Below, piece by piece: positions 7,979 through 25,059 of a stretch of DNA of 64,000 nt. Position 1 is the stretch's first letter, and each line of letters opens with the position of its first letter. The position numbers and the translations under genes were made by a program. The notes below the pieces were generated by a model. That model was given only the letters and a program-made list of their open reading frames with translations. It did no database searches and had not been told where the DNA came from. Source of the stretch: Candidatus Parcubacteria bacterium (lineage in GTDB: Bacteria; Patescibacteriota; Minisyncoccia; UBA6257; 2-01-FULL-56-20). Where the stretch lies: assembly GCA_027450205.1 (NCBI GenBank), contig DAIDJL010000004.1, positions 11,932 to 75,931 of the forward strand, given 5' to 3'.

Positions 7979-8492
7979 GGGAGAGTGGTACGGTAAAAGG
8001 AGCTGCTTTCGGTGTCCAACCAGGGATCGGAAGTACATCTTTAAATACCGAGGGTAAAATGGCAACAGTCGTAGTTGCGCTTAGCGGTACCCGGGAGACC
8101 CATATCCCGGGAAATGGCGTTCCTCGCTTATCCCAACCCCAGTTTGTTTGCACGGATCCCCACCTTTCCGGCAGGCTTCTCTCCGATTTCCTGCAGGGCG
8201 TCAATTGCACCCTTTCCGGTCCGCAGAAGATGCGGATGCTGGATCACGCCAAAGTCTGTCCGTCTTGCAATGGCGTGCTGACAAGGAAGTTTGGAAAGAG
8301 GTTTTCCTGGGACAATTAAGGTCGAGTTTTCGGATTTTTTACCCCACCCCCACACCATGGCGTCGTTTTCATTTTTAGGATCCGGCGCCATCACTCTGTT
8401 CGGACCCTTGAAAAGGGTCCGCATTTCTGTAACTATAGAGCGGGGAGGGTTTTTGATTGGCAGGGGTCCAAGGCGCCGCACGCATGCAAAGC

Positions 8493-8579
8493 GGTGAGGT
8501 GGCTGAGTGGTCGAAGGCGCCGCACTCGAAATGCGGTGTACCTGAAAGGGTACCGTGGGTTCGAATCCCACCCTCACCG
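8493..8579 (+). tRNA. tRNA-Ser(CGA)
   Basis: Acceptor stem GGTGAGG/CCTCACC. Anticodon stem CCGCA/TGCGG with loop CTCGAAA. Long variable arm. T-arm GTGGG-TTCGAAT-CCCAC. The acceptor stem is extended by a flanking inverted repeat GCATGCAAAGC / GCTTTGCATGC. Confidence 0.85.
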
Positions 8580-13550: not shown

Positions 13551-13631
13551 CCCTTGAACGATCTCGTTCCACAACCATTGCCGCCGGCGGAGGAAGGCCC
13601 GAAGCCGCCGCTGCACCACGATGCGCCCGCT

Positions 13632-14522
13632 ATGGCGCGCAAACATAAGGCAAGGCGCCGGCTGGCCGTGGCCGCCGTCATCGTGGCTGCCGCCGGCATG
13701 GCGTTGTGGTATTTCCAAAAATCACTTTCTTTGCCGTTGCAGCATATTGCCGAATTCGGCAATTCCATCGATACCTCACTGACAAATCAGCTGGAACAGA
13801 ATTTTTCCGCACCGTCGCCGTTGCAGCAGGTTACCAAGGCGACGCCCAAAAAAACAAACATTCTCACCGTTGCGGGGGTGATCGCGCAGACGAACATGCA
13901 GCGGGCGCAGAATGGCGACCTCCCGCCGCTTTCGGAGAATGCCACGCTTGACGCTATCGCTACGCTTCGCATTTCCGATATGTTTGCCCAGCAATATTTT
14001 GCACACGTCGGGCCGCAGGGTGAGAGCGCGCTTACCGTGGCGAGCAGCGTACATTACGCGCATCTTGCGCTTGGCGAGAATCTTGCGCTTGGGTTGTTTG
14101 CCGGTGATGCCGGTGTGGTGGATGCGTGGATGAACAGTCCCGGCCACCGCGCGAATATTTTGAACGCGCACTATACGCAGATCGGCGTTGCCGTGCGTGA
14201 GGGGATGTTCCAGGGACAGGAGACGTGGATCGCGGTGCAGGTATTCGGCCGGCCGGCATCCGATTGTCCGTCGCCGGATGCGAATTTGAAGACCAGCATA
14301 GACCTCTCCGAAAAACAGATCAGCGCGATGGCTGCGGAACTCACGTCCGACAGAGCCGCCATAGCCGCCATGTCGCCGCAGGCCGGACCGCAATACAACG
14401 CAAAGGTGGAAGATTACAATAATCTTGCGGCGCAATATAACAACCTCGTCGCAGAGACCAAGACCGCCATCGGCATGTATAACGACGAGGTTGCCGCGTT
14501 CAACCAGTGCCTCAGCGAATAG
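13632..14522 (+). CDS. Membrane-anchored CAP/SCP (PR-1-like, YkwD-type) domain protein
   Basis: CAP motif GHRANILNAHYTQIGVAV plus TM anchor AVAAVIVAAAGMALWYF. The ATG at 13632 is preferred over the track's TTG at 13554. Confidence 0.7.
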   Translation: MARKHKARRRLAVAAVIVAAAGMALWYFQKSLSLPLQHIAEFGNSIDTSLTNQLEQNFSAPSPLQQVTKATPKKTNILTVAGVIAQTNMQRAQNGDLPPLSENATLDAIATLRISDMFAQQYFAHVGPQGESALTVASSVHYAHLALGENLALGLFAGDAGVVDAWMNSPGHRANILNAHYTQIGVAVREGMFQGQETWIAVQVFGRPASDCPSPDANLKTSIDLSEKQISAMAAELTSDRAAIAAMSPQAGPQYNAKVEDYNNLAAQYNNLVAETKTAIGMYNDEVAAFNQCLSE

Positions 14523-14573
14523 CTGACCCTCTCCGCTGGTAAAAAAGCCGTTATTTTGCTATCATTGCGGTGT

Positions 14574-15320
14574 ATGTTGAACATTTCCCTTGTCGCGGAG
14601 AAAGTTTTTTCTATCGGGCCGTTCCCGGTGACGAATGCACTGCTTTTATCGTTCGTGGTGCTTGTGGTTGCCGCCGTCATTGCCGTCACCCTCAAAACAA
14701 AGCTTGCGATGGTTCCCGGCATGTTGCAGAACATCGCCGAAGTAGCGCTTGAAGGCGCGCTTGGCCTGATGGATTCGGTGCTGGGAAGCCGTAGGCAATC
14801 GGAGAAATACCTTCCGCTCGTATTCACGATTTTTATTTTCATACTCATTTCCAACTGGTTCGGGCTGGTTCCCGGCGTCGGTTCGGTGACGATCGGCCAT
14901 GGCGCGGACGCAGTGCCGCTGCTTCGGTCGCCCGCAAGCGACATTAATTTTACGCTCGCACTCGCGCTTATCGCCGTTACGATGGTGAACGTGTTCGCGG
15001 TCTCGATCGTCGGGTTGCGTGAACGCGCGTCCGTTTTTTTTAACTTTGGCAGCCCGATCAAGCTTTTCGTCGGATTGCTTGAGCTTATCTCTGAATTTGC
15101 TAGAATTATCTCGTTCACGTTCCGTCTTTTCGGCAACGTGTTCGCGGGCGAGGTCCTGCTTGCCATCATGGCGCTTCTTGTGCCATATCTCGTTCCATTA
15201 CCGTTCATGTTCCTGGAGGTGTTCGTGGGATTCATCCAGGCGTTCATTTTCGGGATGCTCACTCTGATATTCGTGGCGCTGGCGATCACCCCTCATGAAG
15301 GCGAGGCGGCGGGTCATTGA
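14574..15320 (+). CDS. atpB: F-type ATP synthase subunit a
   Basis: Conserved Arg-containing helix ISFTFRLFGNVFAGE. Five to six TM helices. Confidence 0.85.
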   Translation: MLNISLVAEKVFSIGPFPVTNALLLSFVVLVVAAVIAVTLKTKLAMVPGMLQNIAEVALEGALGLMDSVLGSRRQSEKYLPLVFTIFIFILISNWFGLVPGVGSVTIGHGADAVPLLRSPASDINFTLALALIAVTMVNVFAVSIVGLRERASVFFNFGSPIKLFVGLLELISEFARIISFTFRLFGNVFAGEVLLAIMALLVPYLVPLPFMFLEVFVGFIQAFIFGMLTLIFVALAITPHEGEAAGH

Positions 15321-15454
15321 TGCCGCGGGTGGAAAGGTCGTTATTAAATTAAATAAATCCCAAATTCCAATATCCAAACCCCAAATAAGCATCCAAACCC
15401 TAAATTTCAATTTGGAATTTGAGCTTTGGGGTTCAGGCATTATTTGGAATTTAG

Positions 15455-15712
<258 letters not shown>

Positions 15713-15749
15713 CCGTTTTGTGCAGTAAACGCCGCCGGACGGCGTTACG

Positions 15750-16298
15750 ATGCCCTTGGCGCCAAAGAATCTATTTCACGCAAAAAATCATATGCAGCAA
15801 TTAGTGGATCAATTGGGTATCAATTGGCAGCTCCTGCTCAGTCAGGCGGTCAATTTTGCGCTGCTTCTGATCGTGTTGCGTATTTTTGTGTATAAGCCGT
15901 TATTGAAGCTGTTGCACGACCGGCGCGAGAAGATCGAGGGAGGGTTGGTGAAGGCCGAAGAGGCCGAACGCCGCCTTCACGAAGTTGACGAGATCGGCAA
16001 GGGAAAGATCAAGCATGCCGAAGCGGAAGCGGTCAGCATTCTCAAGAAGACGGAGTCGGACGCGAAGACGCTCGAGGAAAAACTTCTCGCCGAAGCCAGG
16101 CGCCGCGAGGAAGAAGCGATGGCCGGTGCCGCCGTGCGCCTGCGTTCACAGGAAGAAGAATCGCGCCGCGCGATGGAAAAAGAAGCAGCGGCGCTCGTGC
16201 GCGCCGCCATCGTGAGAACGGTCGAACTCTCGCCGGAAAAGATAGATGATGCCTTGATCGCAAAAGCGGTCGGCGAGGCGAAACAGCAGGTCGCATGA
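15750..16298 (+). CDS. atpF: F-type ATP synthase subunit b
   Basis: Single N-terminal TM followed by a long charged helix (A/E/R-rich). The start could instead be the internal ATG at 15792. Confidence 0.8.
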   Translation: MPLAPKNLFHAKNHMQQLVDQLGINWQLLLSQAVNFALLLIVLRIFVYKPLLKLLHDRREKIEGGLVKAEEAERRLHEVDEIGKGKIKHAEAEAVSILKKTESDAKTLEEKLLAEARRREEEAMAGAAVRLRSQEEESRRAMEKEAAALVRAAIVRTVELSPEKIDDALIAKAVGEAKQQVA

Positions 16299-16681
16299 GA
16301 TATCCCGCGCACATTTACGCAAAAGCGCTCGTAGACGTTTTGTCCGTGCCTGCTGGTCCGGGCAAAAAACATGACGACGAGATCGCAAAGAATTTTCTCG
16401 CGCTCGTGCGGAAGAACGGCGACGAGGGGCATCTGCAGAAGATCCTTGAGGAGGCGTCGCGGTTCGCGCGCGGCAAGAGCGGCGTGCGGAAGGTCACCAT
16501 CGCTTCGGCGCGGGAACTGAGCTCTTTGCAGGGCAGGCATCTGGACCAATTCGTAAAGCCGGGGGATGTCGTCGTGAGACGGATCGATTCCGATCTCATC
16601 GCGGGGGTTAAGATCACCATCAACGACGAATTGCAGTTCGACGGGTCGCTGAAGAACAAATTAAACAAGATGCTCCGCTGA
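16295..16681 (+). CDS. atpH: F-type ATP synthase subunit delta (OSCP), short form
   Basis: C-terminal delta motif IDSDLIAGVKITINDELQFDGSLKNKL. The start overlaps the atpF stop (ATGA). Confidence 0.8.
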   Translation: MRYPAHIYAKALVDVLSVPAGPGKKHDDEIAKNFLALVRKNGDEGHLQKILEEASRFARGKSGVRKVTIASARELSSLQGRHLDQFVKPGDVVVRRIDSDLIAGVKITINDELQFDGSLKNKLNKMLR

Positions 16682-16725
16682 TATCCTGGAATTTAGTCAC
16701 GTGGTATTTGGAATTTTAACTATAT

Positions 16726-18252
16726 ATGTCATACGAAATAATAGAAAAATTAAAAAAGGATATCGAAGGATATAAAGAGAAGCCCGAATGGGCTGAGGTC
16801 GGCCGCGTCATCGAGGTCGGCGACGGGATCGTCAAGATCCTCGGCTTACGCAATGCGGTCAGCCAGGAAGTGCTCATTATAGAGACCGCGCACGGCGAAC
16901 GTCCGGCGCTTGCGCTCAGCCTGGAGGAGGAATCCATCGGCGGGCTCGTACTTGGTGATTTTCTTTCGGTGGCGGTGGGGGACACGGTGCGCCGCACGGG
17001 CGACGTGCTTTCCATCCCGGTTGGCGACGAATTGATCGGGCGCGTCGTCGATCCGTTGGGCGAACCGCAGGACGGATTGGGGCCGATATTCAAAGCCGGC
17101 AGTAAGCCCCAGCGTAATCCGATGGAACGGCGCGCGCCCGGCATTCTTGAGCGCGAAGGAGTAAACACGCCGGTGCATACCGGCATCAAGGCGATCGACG
17201 CACTTATTCCGATCGGCCGCGGGCAGCGCGAGCTTATCATCGGCGATCGCCAGTCGGGAAAGACCGCCGTCGCGCTTGATGCCATTTTGAACCAAAAGAA
17301 CGACACCGGCCGCCGCACGCCGATCTGCATTTACGTCGCGATCGGCCAGAAGGAATCAAAGATCGTAAAGATCGCCGAGACGCTCAAAAAGTTCGACGCC
17401 TTCAAATACAGCATCATCGTCTCGGCCTCGGCGGGATCGCCGGCGGCCATGTGGTATCTTGCGCCGTACGCGGGCACCGCGATCGGCGAATATTTCCGCG
17501 ACAAGGGCATGGATGCGCTCATTGTTTACGACGATCTTTCCAAGCACGCGTGGGCATACCGTCAGATCTCTTTGTTGTTGCGCCGCCCGCCGGGCCGCGA
17601 GGCGTATCCGGGCGACGTCTTCTATCTGCACTCGCGCTTATTGGAGCGGTCCGCAAAGCTTTCCAAAGAGAAGGGCGGCGGTTCGCTTACCGCGCTGCCG
17701 ATCGTGGAAACCCAGCTGGGCGACGTGACGGCATATATTCCGACGAACATCATCTCCATCACTGACGGGCAGATCTATCTGGAGACGGATCTCTTCAACC
17801 AGGGCCAGCGCCCGGCGCTGAACGTCGGTATCTCGGTATCACGTGTCGGTTCCGCTGCGCAGACGAAGGCCATGAAGAAAGTGGCCGGCAAGCTTAAGCT
17901 TGCGCACGCGCAGTTCCGCGAGCTCCAGGCATTCGCGCAGTTTGCCACGGACGTGGACGAGGCCACGCGCAAGCGTATTCTGCAAGGACAAAAGATCAAT
18001 GAGGTTTTGAAGCAGAGCGACCTCGACCCGATGCCGGTGGAGGAGCAGGTCTGCGTGTTCTACGCGGTGCTCAACAACTATTTTGAGAATGTGGCCGTGG
18101 AAGATATTGCAAAGACGGAAGCCGGCCTTGTTGATTATCTCAGCAAACTTCACGAAGACGATATTTTGAGACCGATTCGCGAAACAGGATTGTTCGACGA
18201 GACGACGGAGAGCAAATTAAAAGAGGCGATCACGAGGTTTTTGGCAAAATAA
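16726..18252 (+). CDS. atpA: F-type ATP synthase subunit alpha
   Basis: Walker A GDRQSGKT. Highly conserved alpha-subunit blocks. Confidence 0.95.
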   Translation: MSYEIIEKLKKDIEGYKEKPEWAEVGRVIEVGDGIVKILGLRNAVSQEVLIIETAHGERPALALSLEEESIGGLVLGDFLSVAVGDTVRRTGDVLSIPVGDELIGRVVDPLGEPQDGLGPIFKAGSKPQRNPMERRAPGILEREGVNTPVHTGIKAIDALIPIGRGQRELIIGDRQSGKTAVALDAILNQKNDTGRRTPICIYVAIGQKESKIVKIAETLKKFDAFKYSIIVSASAGSPAAMWYLAPYAGTAIGEYFRDKGMDALIVYDDLSKHAWAYRQISLLLRRPPGREAYPGDVFYLHSRLLERSAKLSKEKGGGSLTALPIVETQLGDVTAYIPTNIISITDGQIYLETDLFNQGQRPALNVGISVSRVGSAAQTKAMKKVAGKLKLAHAQFRELQAFAQFATDVDEATRKRILQGQKINEVLKQSDLDPMPVEEQVCVFYAVLNNYFENVAVEDIAKTEAGLVDYLSKLHEDDILRPIRETGLFDETTESKLKEAITRFLAK

Positions 18253-18274
18253 CCGTACGGCTAAAATAAAAAAC

Positions 18275-20858
<2,584 letters not shown>

Positions 20859-20862
20859 AAGT

Positions 20863-21402
20863 ATGAGCTCAACTTTAGAGATGCCAAATAATATTGATGT
20901 TGAAAACGAAGGGGGATCCTTCATTAAATTTGAATCATCGAAAGAGCACTATAAGGCGGAGGCATGCATCGTGTGGTGCTACGATGCCCGGTTTGCGGAT
21001 CTGTATAATGATTTTCTGTCGCAGCGCGGTTTTGAGGATTCGAAAGTGGATGCCGTCAAAGGCGCAGGCGGCGCGCAGGCGCTTGCGGGAGGGGAGGGTG
21101 CCGATCGCACGGTCGCGGAATCCCAGATCGCGAAATCGATCAAGCTTCATCATACCGAGCGTGTCATTTTGATGGTACACATGGACTGCGGCGGCTATGG
21201 CGGTTCCAAGGCGTTTGGCGATGATCATCAGGCGGAATGGGACCACCACGTCGCCGAGCTTCAAAAAGCGGCGGATCTCGTGCAGAGCCAGTTTCCGCAG
21301 GTGAAAGAGATCGAGTGCTGGCTGGCCGACTTTGACGGTATACATAAGATCGACGCGATCACGGGTGCCGAAGCAAAAGAGGAGGAAGAGGAAGCGGCAT
21401 AA
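20863..21402 (+). CDS. Beta-class carbonic-anhydrase-like protein, paralog 1
   Basis: Zinc-ligand motifs in beta-CA order: C-Y-D-A-R (CIVWCYDARF), then about 60 residues later H-M-D-C-G-G (LMVHMDCGGYGG). Acidic poly-Glu tail. Confidence 0.5.
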   Translation: MSSTLEMPNNIDVENEGGSFIKFESSKEHYKAEACIVWCYDARFADLYNDFLSQRGFEDSKVDAVKGAGGAQALAGGEGADRTVAESQIAKSIKLHHTERVILMVHMDCGGYGGSKAFGDDHQAEWDHHVAELQKAADLVQSQFPQVKEIECWLADFDGIHKIDAITGAEAKEEEEEAA

Positions 21403-21483
21403 ATTCTCTTTTCTGTTGGACATATTTTGAAAATTAGGGTATACTTTTGCTAGTGGATTTAAATTCCCATTTTGCTCTGAGGG

Positions 21484-22053
21484 TTGCAAATGGCAGGATT
21501 GTTAGCTGCAGACCGCGCGTTCATCGAAAAACTTCGGAAAGCCGGAGTGTTTCTGGATGTGGAAAATCACCTTATTGACCAGACGGCAGGAGTGATTCTG
21601 GTAACATGTTCGGATGCGGATCGCTTTTGCGATATTTTTATGCATCAGATTTACATGCAGTCGGGATGCCGTCCCGATCCTCGCATTCACGTATTGGCTT
21701 GGCATGGTGGCGCTCTCGCATGCGCGCCGTGCTCACCGATCAACCGTCGGAAACATGCAGATGATGTTTTTCTGGACCAGATCATTGATGCCCGCGCGTT
21801 AAAAGGGATCAATGTTGTGGCGTTATATGCTCACGCGCCTTGCGGCGCGGCCGGGCACCATGGCGTCAGTCTTGAACGGGTCATCGCCCTTCAGGTCAGA
21901 GCTAAGCGCAGGATCAAGGCATTGAACGAAGGGGTCATGGTTGTTTGCTTCTTCCATGTTGATTACGGAAACGGCAAACAGCGGACGTATTTCCTCTGCC
22001 GTGAAAAATGGGAGCAGTGGGCGGAGGCTCATGGTATTCAGGCCATTGCCTGA
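21484..22053 (+). CDS. Beta-class carbonic-anhydrase-like protein, paralog 2 (divergent)
   Basis: Same ligand arrangement: CSDADRF ... AHAPCGAAGHHG. Roughly 25% identical to paralog 1. Confidence 0.45.
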   Translation: MQMAGLLAADRAFIEKLRKAGVFLDVENHLIDQTAGVILVTCSDADRFCDIFMHQIYMQSGCRPDPRIHVLAWHGGALACAPCSPINRRKHADDVFLDQIIDARALKGINVVALYAHAPCGAAGHHGVSLERVIALQVRAKRRIKALNEGVMVVCFFHVDYGNGKQRTYFLCREKWEQWAEAHGIQAIA

Positions 22054-22134
22054 TATCTTTCCGGGCCGGGAATTTTTCTCCCGGCTCATTTTTTATCTTT
22101 CTAAGGCGCGCCGCGTGCGATATAATGGAATGGA

Positions 22135-22413
22135 ATGAAAAATCATCCACCGGCCCTTTTTACCGAAAAAGTTTATGCTGTTGTGGCGAAGATCCCGCGC
22201 GGGAAGACGATGACCTATGGTGAGGTCGCCCGCCGGGCGGGACGGCCGGGCGCTGCCCGCGCAGTGGGGAACATCATGCACAATAATCCGGACACGAAAA
22301 AAGTGCCGTGCCATCGCGTGGTGCGGGCGGATGGAACGCCCGGAGGCTACGCGTGGGGCATAAAAAGGAAGATCGCGCTCCTGCGGCGCGAAGGCGCAAT
22401 TCCGTTCAGATAG
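22135..22413 (+). CDS. ogt: Methylated-DNA-protein-cysteine methyltransferase DNA-binding domain protein (Ogt/MGMT C-terminal domain only)
   Basis: Active-site motif PCHRVV and a helix-turn-helix (TYGEVARRAGRPGAARAVG). Confidence 0.8.
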   Translation: MKNHPPALFTEKVYAVVAKIPRGKTMTYGEVARRAGRPGAARAVGNIMHNNPDTKKVPCHRVVRADGTPGGYAWGIKRKIALLRREGAIPFR

Positions 22414-22453
22414 AGCGCGTTTCGGCACGATTGCCGTATGGTATACTGGAGGC

Positions 22454-22936
22454 ATGAAATCTTTGGGTGCCCTGAAGACATTGGCCATCGTGTTCGCCGT
22501 GATCATCATCATCCTGCTGGGCGTGCTCTTTTTCTACAATCCTGCGAAGGCGCCGCTGCTCCCGCCGGACAACGCCGGCGGGGCGAAAATACTCCAGCCG
22601 ACCCTTTCCGCGGACGGGCATCTTGGCGTGACGGCGCCGCAGCCGGGCGCGCTCGTGACGTCGCCGGTCACCGTCGTGGGCACCGTCACCGGCGGCGGAT
22701 GGTTTTTTGAGGCGTCATTTCCGGTAAAGGTTCTGGACGGCAACGGCACGGTCATCGGCCGCGGCATCGCGCAGGCGCAAGCCGACTGGATGTCCACGAG
22801 CTCCGTGCCCTTCACCGCAATCGTGCAATTTTCCGCGCCGGCAGGCGCCACGGGCACGGTCGTGCTTTCCAAGGACAATCCGTCCGGCAATCCCGCAATG
22901 GACATGTCTCTCAGCATTCCGATAAGATTCAAATAA
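22454..22936 (+). CDS. Membrane-anchored protein with Ig-like (Gmad2-like) domain, hypothetical
   Basis: N-terminal TM LAIVFAVIIIILLGVLFF followed by a beta-rich domain (VTVVGTVTGGGWFFEASFPVKVLDGNGTVIG). Confidence 0.45.
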   Translation: MKSLGALKTLAIVFAVIIIILLGVLFFYNPAKAPLLPPDNAGGAKILQPTLSADGHLGVTAPQPGALVTSPVTVVGTVTGGGWFFEASFPVKVLDGNGTVIGRGIAQAQADWMSTSSVPFTAIVQFSAPAGATGTVVLSKDNPSGNPAMDMSLSIPIRFK

Positions 22937-22946
22937 AATATCATTT

Positions 22947-23402
22947 ATGAATTTCGAAAAAGGAGCAAGTGAGAATCCCGAAACGAGGATGGTACGGACC
23001 ATCGATGGTTCTTCCAAAGGCACCGTCGAGGCGCTGGATGCCGTCGTTCATTTTCTGGAGTCGGCGGATCTGAACGGAGATCGCATCGATGACATCAAGA
23101 AGACCGTGCGCGTCGGGATCGAGAACGCCGTTACCTATGCCAACCACGGAGATGCGAAAAAATCGATCGTTGTCGAGCTTTCGGTAAATGTCGCAAAGGA
23201 CAGCGAAGGATCCGTGGAAATATCCATCGCGGGCGAAGACAAAGCGGTGGAAGCGTCTTCTCCTACGGAAGCTGAGGCCAGTCTGCAGGGCGCGCGGGCA
23301 GGAGATCTTTTCATGAAGCTCCCGGCGGGCATTGAAGTGACCCTTTTTCCCGAGGAGAACAGGGTGATATTGAAGCGGAACGCGGAACCGGCAGGGGAAT
23401 AA
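22947..23402 (+). CDS. Hypothetical acidic protein, possibly GHKL/anti-sigma-factor-like ATP-binding fold
   Basis: Weak resemblance to the RsbW/SpoIIAB-type HATPase fold (VRVGIENAVTYANHG ... ELSVNV). No firm motif. Confidence 0.3.
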   Translation: MNFEKGASENPETRMVRTIDGSSKGTVEALDAVVHFLESADLNGDRIDDIKKTVRVGIENAVTYANHGDAKKSIVVELSVNVAKDSEGSVEISIAGEDKAVEASSPTEAEASLQGARAGDLFMKLPAGIEVTLFPEENRVILKRNAEPAGE

Positions 23403-23441
23403 AAAAAGCCCCCCGTCATGGATCGTTGAATATGACGGGGG

Positions 23442-23699
23442 TTACTTCGTGGGAAAAAGATCAAGCTGATGACGGTTAAAGAATGCTTTGTCGCTGCCGG
23501 ATTTGCCGAGCTTGCTGCAAACGAGTGCGCGCATTTCGCTTTGGAGGGGATCATTGCGGATCCCATGTTTATCGAGCGCCACGATGACGGCACCCAATGC
23601 ATTCTTCTTATAAGGCTGTCTGCCGTATAGCTCGCTGGCATCGTGAAGGACCGCCAGGAACAGCGGGCTTTCCTCCAGTTTTATTTCTTTGGTTGCCAA
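23442..23699 (-). CDS. Hypothetical small protein (85 aa)
   Basis: ORF with AT-rich flanks. First gene of a two-gene minus-strand cassette. No family recognised. Confidence 0.4.
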   Translation of the reverse strand: MATKEIKLEESPLFLAVLHDASELYGRQPYKKNALGAVIVALDKHGIRNDPLQSEMRALVCSKLGKSGSDKAFFNRHQLDLFPTK

Positions 23700-23822
23700 G
23701 GCGCACCTCTCCTTTCCTGTTTAGTATTTTAACATAAATATCCGATATACGCAACTAGGGACAGGATAAGAAAAGCCGCCCCGTAATGTGCGGGGCGGCC
23801 GGGTTATTGCATGGACGATAGA

Positions 23823-24278
23823 CTAGAACGTCCGAAACTTGTCTGCGAATGCGGGGTTGTTTTCCAACTTCTCCTGAACGAGCCGGGAGCGGGAAGAGAT
23901 TTGGCGGTGGATGATCCCGACGAGCTCGGAGATCCTTTTGGGATCTTCTTTGTCGGGATTGTATTGAGCAAAGGTCAGCTCAATAGCCTTTTCAAACGAG
24001 ACCTGATAGTCGACAAGCACTCTCACGTAATCCGTCAATGCCTTGACGGAATAGGAGATCTCTTTGCGTTGCCGTTCTCTTCTGATCGCGGCGCGGATCT
24101 CGCATTTAAGTATCTCCTGCGTTTCGCCGGGCTCGATGTGGTATTGCCCCATCAGGTATTCCAGCGCGTTCTCAAGGCCGCCGAACTCGCGCATGGATTC
24201 TCTTGTTTCGGTGATCAGGGTTGCAAGAGAAACATCAAAACTCTCTCGTTCGGGCGGTAATGCGATATTGGCCGTCAT
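23823..24278 (-). CDS. Hypothetical protein (151 aa)
   Basis: ORF with typical codon usage and a mostly helical prediction. No family recognised. Confidence 0.45.
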   Translation of the reverse strand: MTANIALPPERESFDVSLATLITETRESMREFGGLENALEYLMGQYHIEPGETQEILKCEIRAAIRRERQRKEISYSVKALTDYVRVLVDYQVSFEKAIELTFAQYNPDKEDPKRISELVGIIHRQISSRSRLVQEKLENNPAFADKFRTF

Positions 24279-24402
24279 TCGTTACCTCGAAAATGAAAAT
24301 AGTACCGTCTCTATTTCTACCCTTTTTTATTAGAGATGTCAAAGTTTTGTGCAATATCTTTCTATGCCAGTTCCGTTATAATTTAACTATCGTATCAACA
24401 TT

Positions 24403-25059
24403 ATGATTCCTCCCAAAGACCTTCCGCGCCTGCGCGCCCGGTGGCGCAAGATTTCCCGCACGCTTGGCAGGCTTTTTCCGCATCCCAAGATCGCGCTCAC
24501 GTACGGCAATGCGTGGGAACTGCTCGTGGCGGTTCAGCTTTCCGCGCAGTGCACGGACAAGAAAGTGAATGAGGTGACGCCCGCGCTGTTCAAAAAGTAC
24601 CGGACGCTCGACGCGTATGTGCGCGCTGGCAGGACGGCGGCCGGCGTTCGCGCGTTCGAAGCGATGGTGAAGCAGACCGGATTCTATCGCGCGAAGACGC
24701 GCAACATTCTCGCGGCGGCACGCGTGGTCAAGGAAAAGTTCGGCGGCAAACTCCCGCGCACGATGGCGGAGATGGTGACAATCCCGGGCGTCGGCCGCAA
24801 GTCGGCGAACGTCATCCTCGGCAACACCTACGGCGTGGTGGAGGGGATCGCGGTGGACACGCACGTGATGCGCCTGTCGCGCGTGCTCGGCCTCTCGCGC
24901 GAAAAGACGCCGGAGAAGATAGAGCAGGACCTGATGGCCATCATCCCGCGCAAGGATTGGTTTCGCGCCACGTACATGCTGATCGACTACGGCCGCGCCT
25001 ACTGCGTGGCACGCCCGCACAAGCACGAGCTGTGCCCGCTGACGAAAGTGGTGGGGTAG
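24403..25059 (+). CDS. nth: Endonuclease III (DNA glycosylase/AP lyase)
   Basis: HhH-GPD motif IPGVGRKSANVIL, catalytic Lys/Asp context, and C-terminal 4Fe-4S cluster C-x6-C-x2-C-x5-C (CVARPHKHELCPL). Confidence 0.9.
   Translation: MIPPKDLPRLRARWRKISRTLGRLFPHPKIALTYGNAWELLVAVQLSAQCTDKKVNEVTPALFKKYRTLDAYVRAGRTAAGVRAFEAMVKQTGFYRAKTRNILAAARVVKEKFGGKLPRTMAEMVTIPGVGRKSANVILGNTYGVVEGIAVDTHVMRLSRVLGLSREKTPEKIEQDLMAIIPRKDWFRATYMLIDYGRAYCVARPHKHELCPLTKVVG
24985..25059 (+). repeat. Direct repeat copy A (3' end of nth)
   Basis: The 72-75 nt segment GACTACGGCCGCGCCTACTGCGTGGCACGCCCGCACAAGCACGAGCTGTGCCCGCTGACGAAAGTG... is repeated at 25869-25940 with 3 mismatches over the shared ~66 nt. Confidence 0.8.

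Follow-up and report, generated by a model that had tools for sequence, protein, structure and literature searches.

Beta-carbonic-anhydrase-like genes at the 3' end of the ATP synthase operon in Parcubacteria: a minimal family and a paralog without the dyad arginine

A 64,000-nt stretch of DNA from Candidatus Parcubacteria bacterium (assembly GCA_027450205.1, contig DAIDJL010000004.1, positions 11,932 to 75,931 of the forward strand), here called the window, carries a complete F1Fo ATP synthase operon on the + strand, with atpB, atpE, atpF, atpH, atpA, atpG, atpD and atpC arranged in this order from 14556 to 20858. The operon is followed on the same strand by two open reading frames (ORFs), ORF1 and ORF2, whose products resemble beta-class carbonic anhydrases (CAs). 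The two proteins have a beta-CA fold with conserved metal ligands, are paralogs, and belong to families linked to the atp operon in the Parcubacteria/Paceibacteria of the candidate phyla radiation (CPR). A first-pass annotation had placed the start of ORF1 5 nt after atpC, and this was verified: the atpC stop codon ends at 20858 and the ORF1 ATG begins at 20863, which leaves a gap of 4 nt. The NCBI call for the identical ORF1 protein begins at M7 (20881). A spacer of 87 nt separates ORF1 from ORF2. The start of ORF2 is likely the ATG at 21490, because GAGGG is found 6 nt upstream, the homologs begin with MAG or MSG, and the NCBI call is also 187 aa. An antisense ORF of 184 aa (20935-21489) was rejected as an artefact of the conserved ORF1 frame. 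The features of the window and of the related loci are listed in Table 1.

Table 1. Coordinates of the features in the window, and gene arrangements in related loci (designated L plus a number; A1, ORF1 family; A2, ORF2 family)
Feature	Position or loci	Strand	Basis or remark
atpB	14556-15320	+	assigned by order, size and sequence
atpE	15458-15712	+	assigned by order, size and sequence
atpF	15750-16298	+	assigned by order, size and sequence
atpH (delta), short, 128 aa	16295-16681	+	ORF list, translation, OSCP match
atpA	16726-18252	+	orthologs in related loci
atpG	18275-19210	+	orthologs in related loci
atpD	19213-20613	+	orthologs in related loci
atpC (epsilon), 82 aa	20610-20858	+	Pfam ATP-synt_DE_N
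ORF1, minimal beta-CA-like, Pro_CA_2	20863-21402	+	179 aa; alternative start 20881
Promoter-like site TGGACA-17-TATACT	21417-21445	+	ORF1-ORF2 spacer; 10/12 consensus matches
ORF2, divergent beta-CA-fold paralog	21484/21490-22053	+	187 aa from ATG 21490
Terminator-like GC-rich hairpin and T-run	22063-22097	+	9-bp stem, 7 GC pairs, then ATTTTTTATC
CsoSCA-like protein, 352 aa, in the ORF1 slot	L107:3819-4877		replaces ORF1
Gene order atpC-A1-A2	L017, L020, L047, L099		order of the window
Gene order atpC-A1, A2 convergent	at least 15 loci, including L006, L009, L010, L012, L106		
Gene order atpC-A2-A1	L011, L013		
Gene order atpC-A2 alone	L008, L097		
A2 or A2-A1 divergent from atpB	Lloydbacteria L002-L005; L101		

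ORF1 contains the motifs CYDAR at residues 39-43 and HMDCGG at 106-111, and ORF2 contains CSDADR at 40-45 and HAPCGAAG at 115-122. The first-pass annotation had claimed that both proteins carry the zinc ligands of beta-CAs in the correct order and spacing; the quoted motifs were indeed present, and the motif residues were conserved at 97-100% in 142 homologs of ORF1 and 206 homologs of ORF2. Among the 142 non-redundant sequences of the ORF1 family, C39, D41, R43, H106 and C109 were essentially invariant. The predicted zinc-ligand positions C39, H106 and C109 were each retained in at least 136 of the 138 sequences that bear a residue there, and the Asp-Arg dyad was complete (D41 in 135/138, R43 in 138/138). 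The same five residues (Cys, Asp, Arg, His, Cys) were reportedly found by Smith and Ferry to be conserved across the beta class. Against Pfam, ORF1 matched Pro_CA_2 (PF20393) with 47.7 bits (E 2.2e-12; cutoff 30), and all but three among the 56 homologs listed belong to this family too; the search of NCBIfam models gave no match for ORF1. Additional invariants of the ORF1 family were H29, Y30, C35, W38, D63, AGGA at 68-71, S92 and H96. Those ORF1 homologs that carry a C-terminal tail nearly always ended in Ala-Ala (16/142), as in ...AKTAAA and ...EEEEAA, an ending that recalls a ClpXP degron of the ssrA type (window 21376-21399).

In the ORF2 family, C40, D42, H115 and C118 were conserved at 99-100% in the 206 sequences. 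The position of the dyad Arg is taken by D44, and in the family Asp accounts for 87%, His for 9% and Arg for only 1% of the sequences. The Arg of CSDADR is out of register (CxDxxR) and is not conserved (Gln 62%, Arg 27%). The reading of CSDADR as a beta-CA motif thus held for the metal ligands and failed for the Arg. H67, K105 and P117 were invariants specific to this family. ORF2 had no match among the Pfam or NCBIfam models, and none of 29 family members matched Pro_CA_2 even at E 10. An exhaustive profile search gave 722 cluster representatives at E <= 1e-3, so the ORF2 family is substantial yet unmodelled. One member is already labelled 'Carbonic anhydrase' in UniRef, indicating that the resemblance has been noticed by automated superfamily annotation. 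The closest ORF2 homologs also share a conserved C-terminus, G-[IV]-x-A-[IV]-[AC] (window 22033-22050).

The first-pass annotation was also correct in calling the two proteins highly diverged from each other, with 23% identity and a BLASTP E value of 5e-4. When the two family profiles were compared with hhalign, a probability of 95.7% was obtained (E 9e-9, 116 columns), and CxD, GGA and HxxCG were kept in register. The hidden Markov model (HMM) of each family detected members of the other with E values from about 1e-8 to 1. As judged from these alignments, ORF1 and ORF2 are remote, anciently diverged paralogs within the beta-CA fold. In the same profile alignment D63 and H96 of the ORF1 family fall on H67 and K105 of the ORF2 family. 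As a control for chance, the motif C.D.{40,90}H..CG was searched in all 770 six-frame ORFs of the window and was matched by three of them, namely ORF1, ORF2 and one other, while residue shuffles gave 0.08 matches per ORF set. This low rate together with the 97-100% conservation indicates that the motifs of ORF1 and ORF2 did not arise by chance. The third match (1306-1521) was rejected as a chance occurrence, since it is an out-of-frame ORF within a leuS-like gene (an aminoacyl-tRNA synthetase by sequence motifs alone).

The AlphaFold2 models of ORF1 and ORF2 had a mean confidence (predicted local distance difference test) of 88.1 and 92.1, respectively. In both models the core is beta-alpha-beta; strands 1 and 3 carry the Cys motif and the His/Cys motif, respectively, at their C-terminal ends, as in beta-CAs. 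Structure prediction bore out the claim of a beta-CA-like fold, because the top 50 PDB matches of both models were exclusively beta-CA-fold proteins. For ORF1 these were beta-CAs together with CS2 hydrolase (best E 2e-6), the best matches being CafA, Cab (1G5C), CafC and Rv1284; for ORF2 all were beta-CAs (best E 4e-4). In a weak sequence match, VHMDCGG of ORF1 was aligned with HHTDCGM of Rv1284. Alignment of a deep ORF2 profile with the family of E. coli Can (E 0.011) paired C40 with C42, D42 with D44, D44 with R46, H115 with H98 and C118 with C101. The idea that R43/D63 of ORF1 and D44/H67 of ORF2 form an altered active-site pair with swapped charges was discarded, since the predicted models place D63 and H67 at the N-terminus of strand 2, opposite the zinc site across the parallel sheet.

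Gene order in relatives was examined in metagenome loci retrieved with the ORF1 family as query. Of 80 loci obtained, 54 had enough upstream sequence to be informative, and the gene directly upstream of A1 on the same strand was atpC in 44 and atpD in five more (49/54). The placement of a CA-like gene after atpC is therefore conserved in relatives. The first-pass annotation had called such an arrangement unusual, which is correct among bacteria generally; within this Parcubacteria/Paceibacteria lineage it is the rule. Loci of the ORF2 family were retrieved with a narrower alignment, as the broad one had no sufficiently conserved stretch. ORF2 relatives were found in ten GTDB species genomes, six of them labelled Paceibacterota, Paceibacteria, Parcubacteria or Liptonbacteria, two Saccharibacteria, one 'bacterium' and one Gammaproteobacteria. 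A2 was linked to atp genes in seven of these ten loci and on several further contigs, and at least five gene arrangements that place it beside the atp operon were seen. Linkage that is retained through inversion, order swap and relocation classically points to functional coupling. Beside A1, a second beta-CA-like gene was found in at least 33 of the 54 loci. A1 occurred without A2 in 21/54 loci and A2 without A1 in L008 and L097; an obligate ORF1-ORF2 heterodimer is unlikely, as each family often occurs without the other.

An A2 homolog without atp neighbours was found on the 293-kb contig L001 and also in L105. The L001 homolog (8001-8555) shares 62% identity with ORF2, and its neighbours are not CPR-like (a GAF/sigma-54 activator, MurJ, bactofilin and RNase R); it adjoins Iron_traffic (YggX-like) and ferredoxin-nitroreductase genes, with no atp gene nearby. 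The contig could be chimeric, or the gene could have left CPR by lateral transfer.

Further beta-CA-like proteins were detected in the same slot. Synteny of L107 with the window extends to both sides (atpC, X, A2, MGMT-like, Gmad2, HhH-GPD), and the ORF1 slot X is occupied by a 352-aa protein with a weak match to Pro_CA (E 0.077) and a match to the carboxysome shell CA model TIGR02701 in the catalytic-domain region (E 1.9e-6; 27 bits vs the equivalog cutoff of 241). The invariant motifs of this CsoSCA-like family are CMDGR, N.GG and H-x9-GC, and its homologs follow A1 in four other loci (L023:593-1690, L040:1911-2567, L048:273-1352 and L067:581-1669). A1 is followed in L022 and L057 by ORFs with CSDRR...H.EC and in L058 by an ORF with CVDPD...HNEC; all were missed by the A1 and A2 HMMs. 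The true count of second CA-like genes is therefore above 33/54. Going by these motifs and matches, at least three divergent beta-CA branches are recruited to the tail of this atp operon, and repeated recruitment of different branches suggests that the chemistry was selected and not one particular protein surface. CsoSCA (beta-like, formerly the epsilon class) and the L107 protein share CxDxR and the long His-to-Cys spacing. Unlike CsoSCA, the L107 protein is far below the equivalog cutoff and has no carboxysome genes nearby; it is absent from the window.

The ATP synthase itself was also inspected. The window AtpA, AtpG and AtpD proteins have orthologs in the related loci, with E values as low as 1e-289. 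The delta subunit has only 128 aa, and its OSCP match spans profile positions 65-168 only. In the epsilon subunit, residues 1-80 of 82 were covered by Pfam ATP-synt_DE_N (E 4e-18), which corresponds to the N-terminal beta-sandwich domain only; no C-terminal domain was matched in the Pfam search and the C-terminal regulatory helices are missing. The median length of epsilon, counted from the first Met in 67 related loci, was also 82 aa. This lineage has a structurally streamlined ATP synthase in which the usual brake on ATP hydrolysis by epsilon is missing. The c subunit of the window has E-A-V instead of E-S/T-T and no Gln in helix 1, and we take it to be of the H+ type from a comparison by eye with the motif of I. 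tartaricus.

Possible transcription signals were also looked for. The terminator-like hairpin begins 10 nt past the ORF2 stop, and no terminator-like site of similar strength was among those listed from atpC to ORF2, where only weak stems of 5-6 pairs occur within the ORFs. The presence of a strong hairpin only after ORF2 fits one transcription unit from atpB through ORF2. The promoter-like site in the ORF1-ORF2 spacer is weak evidence, because two such sites were seen in the region and 1.8 were expected from shuffles. A separate promoter before ORF2 would fit the frequent location of ORF2 on the opposite strand in relatives.

Considering the complete catalytic set, ORF1 is most likely an active minimal zinc beta-CA, with zinc binding and activity predicted from sequence. 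We propose that ORF1 is an active Cab-like beta-CA serving the H+-type F1Fo enzyme and that ORF2 is a modified protein without the dyad Arg, both encoded at a conserved operon 3' end; taken as a whole, we consider this proposal about equally likely to be right or wrong. The first-pass annotation had suggested bicarbonate/CO2 handling coupled to energy metabolism, and such coupling is much more credible from the lineage-wide linkage than it was from a single genome.

According to this proposal, ORF1 would be co-transcribed and probably translationally coupled with atpC, and as a cytoplasmic enzyme it would interconvert CO2 + H2O and HCO3- + H+. The ATP synthase that it would serve is of the H+ type, has an epsilon subunit without the inhibitory C-terminal domain, and probably often works as an ATP-driven proton pump in fermentative, ultra-small cells, the direction being presumed. 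ORF1 may then give a fast supply or buffering of protons from the CO2/bicarbonate pool, by analogy with CA II. In acid-secreting animal cells, cytosolic CA II makes H+ from CO2 for a proton pump driven by ATP, and bicarbonate is left. Unlike ORF1, CA II is an alpha-class, eukaryotic enzyme and its pump is of the V or P type, so that there is no homology and the comparison is one of analogy. Alternatively, ORF1 may supply bicarbonate as an activator of F1; bicarbonate is a known activating anion of F1-ATPase and relieves MgADP inhibition. ORF2 would not be a standard CA; it would be either an enzyme in modified form or a partner protein that binds CO2/bicarbonate or has a regulatory role. In beta-CAs the dyad Arg orients the catalytic Asp, and such an Asp can bind zinc and close the site. 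Without the orienting Arg, ORF2 may be a low-activity or ligand-sensing variant.

Several observations weigh against this proposal. ORF2 has the metal ligands and not the full catalytic set of beta-CAs, which counts against it if ORF2 is taken as a conventional CA, and variants of Cab at R36 are strongly impaired. The profile searches gave a divided result with respect to the first-pass claim of beta-CA membership: ORF1 is above the cutoff of Pro_CA_2 and ORF2 is connected to it through the family profile match, but with canonical Pro_CA (PF00484) ORF1 scored only 13.4 bits (E 0.092), below the cutoff of 25.7, and ORF2 gave no match. The TM-scores (template modelling scores) from Foldseek were modest, 0.45-0.58 for ORF1 and 0.39-0.50 for ORF2. 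When PDB sequences were searched, whether with single proteins or with family profiles, the beta-CA matches were no more than marginal (E 0.65-1.6). The hhalign matches to the E. coli Can family were weak (E 2e-4 and 0.011), with the motifs in register; the last homolog search for the Can profile had yielded only homologs at least 76% identical. The invariant polar residues H29, Y30, C35, W38, D63, S92 and H96 of the ORF1 family have no counterpart in known beta-CAs and could point to a different substrate or a binding surface. No measurement of activity, metal content or interaction was found in the literature for any Pro_CA_2 member. The physiological coupling model is an analogy, and conserved operon membership would fit a structural or regulatory subunit equally well.

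Such a subunit is the first alternative to be weighed. ORF1 and/or ORF2 might have no enzymatic role and instead serve the CPR ATP synthase as assembly factors or as accessory or regulatory subunits, with the beta-CA fold repurposed as a metal-stabilised binding module; perhaps they compensate for the missing C-terminal domain of epsilon and the short delta, or gate the ATPase by CO2/bicarbonate. This fits the position of the genes as the last of the operon, 4 nt after atpC and conserved in about 90% of the loci, the truncation of both epsilon and delta, and the absence of the catalytic Arg from ORF2. Invariants away from the predicted zinc site (D63/H96 in A1, equivalent to H67/K105 in A2) could form a docking surface. 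However, the occupation of the same slot by at least three very different beta-CA branches is hard to reconcile with one docking interface, the strict conservation of all five catalytic residues in ORF1 would not be needed for a purely structural role, and the A2 homologs of L001 and L105 have no atp neighbours. We regard a non-enzymatic role as unlikely.

A further reading can also be considered, in which the beta-CA-like proteins dock on the streamlined CPR F1Fo enzyme, either as an energy-coupled CA module or as a CO2/bicarbonate-sensing brake that replaces the C-terminal domain of epsilon, with the Arg-less ORF2 family as a non-catalytic sensing or docking partner. This is a speculative idea to which we give little credence. 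CA-like modules are known on other ion-translocating complexes, namely DabA-DabB, CupA/CupB on cyanobacterial NDH-1 and the gamma-CA of plant complex I. As in these systems, a CA-type zinc protein appears to be tied, here genetically, to a proton-translocating membrane machine. Unlike in these systems, the partner is the F1Fo ATP synthase, and ORF1 and ORF2 are small and soluble-looking. We know of no CA-module precedent for an F-type ATP synthase, so physical association, if true, would make this the first.

Alternatively, ORF1 could be an ordinary housekeeping beta-CA that provides the remaining carboxylation reactions with bicarbonate, or the form II/III RuBisCO of some CPR with CO2, and rides on a strong constitutive atp operon without any specific tie to the ATPase; ORF2 would then be a duplicate that is decaying or has been neofunctionalised. 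As housekeeping enzymes beta-CAs are widespread, reduced genomes often place genes into highly expressed operons, A1 stands alone in 21/54 loci, and ORF2 possibly has a promoter of its own. Hitch-hiking, however, does not predict that the atp linkage survives inversion, order swap and a move to the atpB side, and the 722 representatives and invariant ligands of the ORF2 family show clear purifying selection, so that this family is not decaying. This explanation seems rather improbable to us. It is very improbable that ORF1 and ORF2 hydrolyse another small linear molecule (carbonyl sulfide (COS), carbon disulfide (CS2) or a related heterocumulene) like the beta-CA-fold COS hydrolase and CS2 hydrolase: CS2 hydrolase (3ten, 3teo) is among the Foldseek matches of ORF1 (E 4e-5), these enzymes have the same five catalytic residues as CAs so that sequence cannot separate them, and family-specific invariants could reshape the substrate tunnel, but the best structural matches are true CAs, no locus examined has a sulfur-metabolism context, and no reason for the ATP synthase linkage is given.

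Among characterised enzymes, the closest likeness is to the Cab-type minimal beta-CAs, which include Cab of M. thermoautotrophicum (1G5C), Rv1284 of M. tuberculosis (1YLK) and CafC/CafD of A. fumigatus. Like these, ORF1 and ORF2 are small (about 150-190 aa) and have the same alpha/beta fold (Foldseek probability 1.0), with CxDxR after strand 1 in ORF1 and H-x-D/x-C-G after strand 3. Unlike these, they share only 12-18% identity with the Cab type, both are under the Pro_CA threshold, each family has extra invariants, and in ORF2 the dyad Arg is replaced by Asp. The Cys-to-His spacing is also longer, 67 residues in ORF1 and 75 in ORF2 vs 56 in E. coli Can. Pro_CA_2 is described in Pfam as 'putative carbonic anhydrase'; ORF1 is a member, and ORF2 represents a sister family at the superfamily level only, through the profile-profile match. 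Neither a characterised member nor a paper on the function of Pro_CA_2 was found in the literature, and the literature search gave no paper on a CA gene in the atp operons of CPR (Parcubacteria/Patescibacteria). The fold and the chemistry are already known. What appears to be new is the Arg-less family and the conserved association of CA-like genes with the atp operon.

CPR bacteria represent a large share of bacterial diversity and have to maintain a membrane potential without respiratory chains. In this lineage a beta-CA-like gene is effectively the ninth gene of the atp operon, often followed by a second, fast-diverging paralog. The lineage-wide linkage suggests that the proton-moving ATPase works together with CO2/bicarbonate chemistry, and it may offer a handle on how CPR use their ATP synthase, be it proton supply or buffering in ultra-small cells, activation by bicarbonate or CO2-dependent regulation. 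The Arg-less CxDxD...HxPC branch of ORF2 is hereby defined as a sizeable unmodelled protein family.

Other genes were observed around the operon. Directly upstream of atpB, positions 13554-14522 encode a 322-aa protein with a CAP (cysteine-rich secretory protein) domain. On the 3' side of ORF2, the region 22135-25059 contains genes for a 92-aa MGMT-type DNA_binding_1 protein, a Gmad2-domain protein, a protein with a weak HATPase_c_2 match and an HhH-GPD glycosylase; the synteny of these genes extends to L107, L099 and L106, so that the block of atp and CA-like genes adjoins a small DNA-repair neighbourhood conserved in the lineage. In two Parcubacteria loci (L097:6880-12585 and L098:5577-11282), a cluster encoding Complex1_30kDa/49kDa, two Proton_antipo_M, Oxidored_q2 and NADHdh proteins meets the post-atpC ORF2 homolog head-on. 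This cluster resembles an Mbh/Mrp- or complex-I-like membrane module beside the ATP synthase, which is unexpected in a CPR genome.

Inserted genes were seen within the atp operons of several relatives. In L099 (324-3710), a gene for a 1128-aa Big_7/SH3_3 protein lies between atpG and atpD, and gaps of 2-2.7 kb between the same two genes occur in L017, L031, L047 and L057. A conserved protein of 119-126 aa is also encoded between atpG and atpD in relatives (listed with L101:957-1337). In Lloydbacteria, an NYN-domain gene and several small unknown genes are located between atpA and atpG (L002:957-4152). The atp operon of the window has no such inserted genes.

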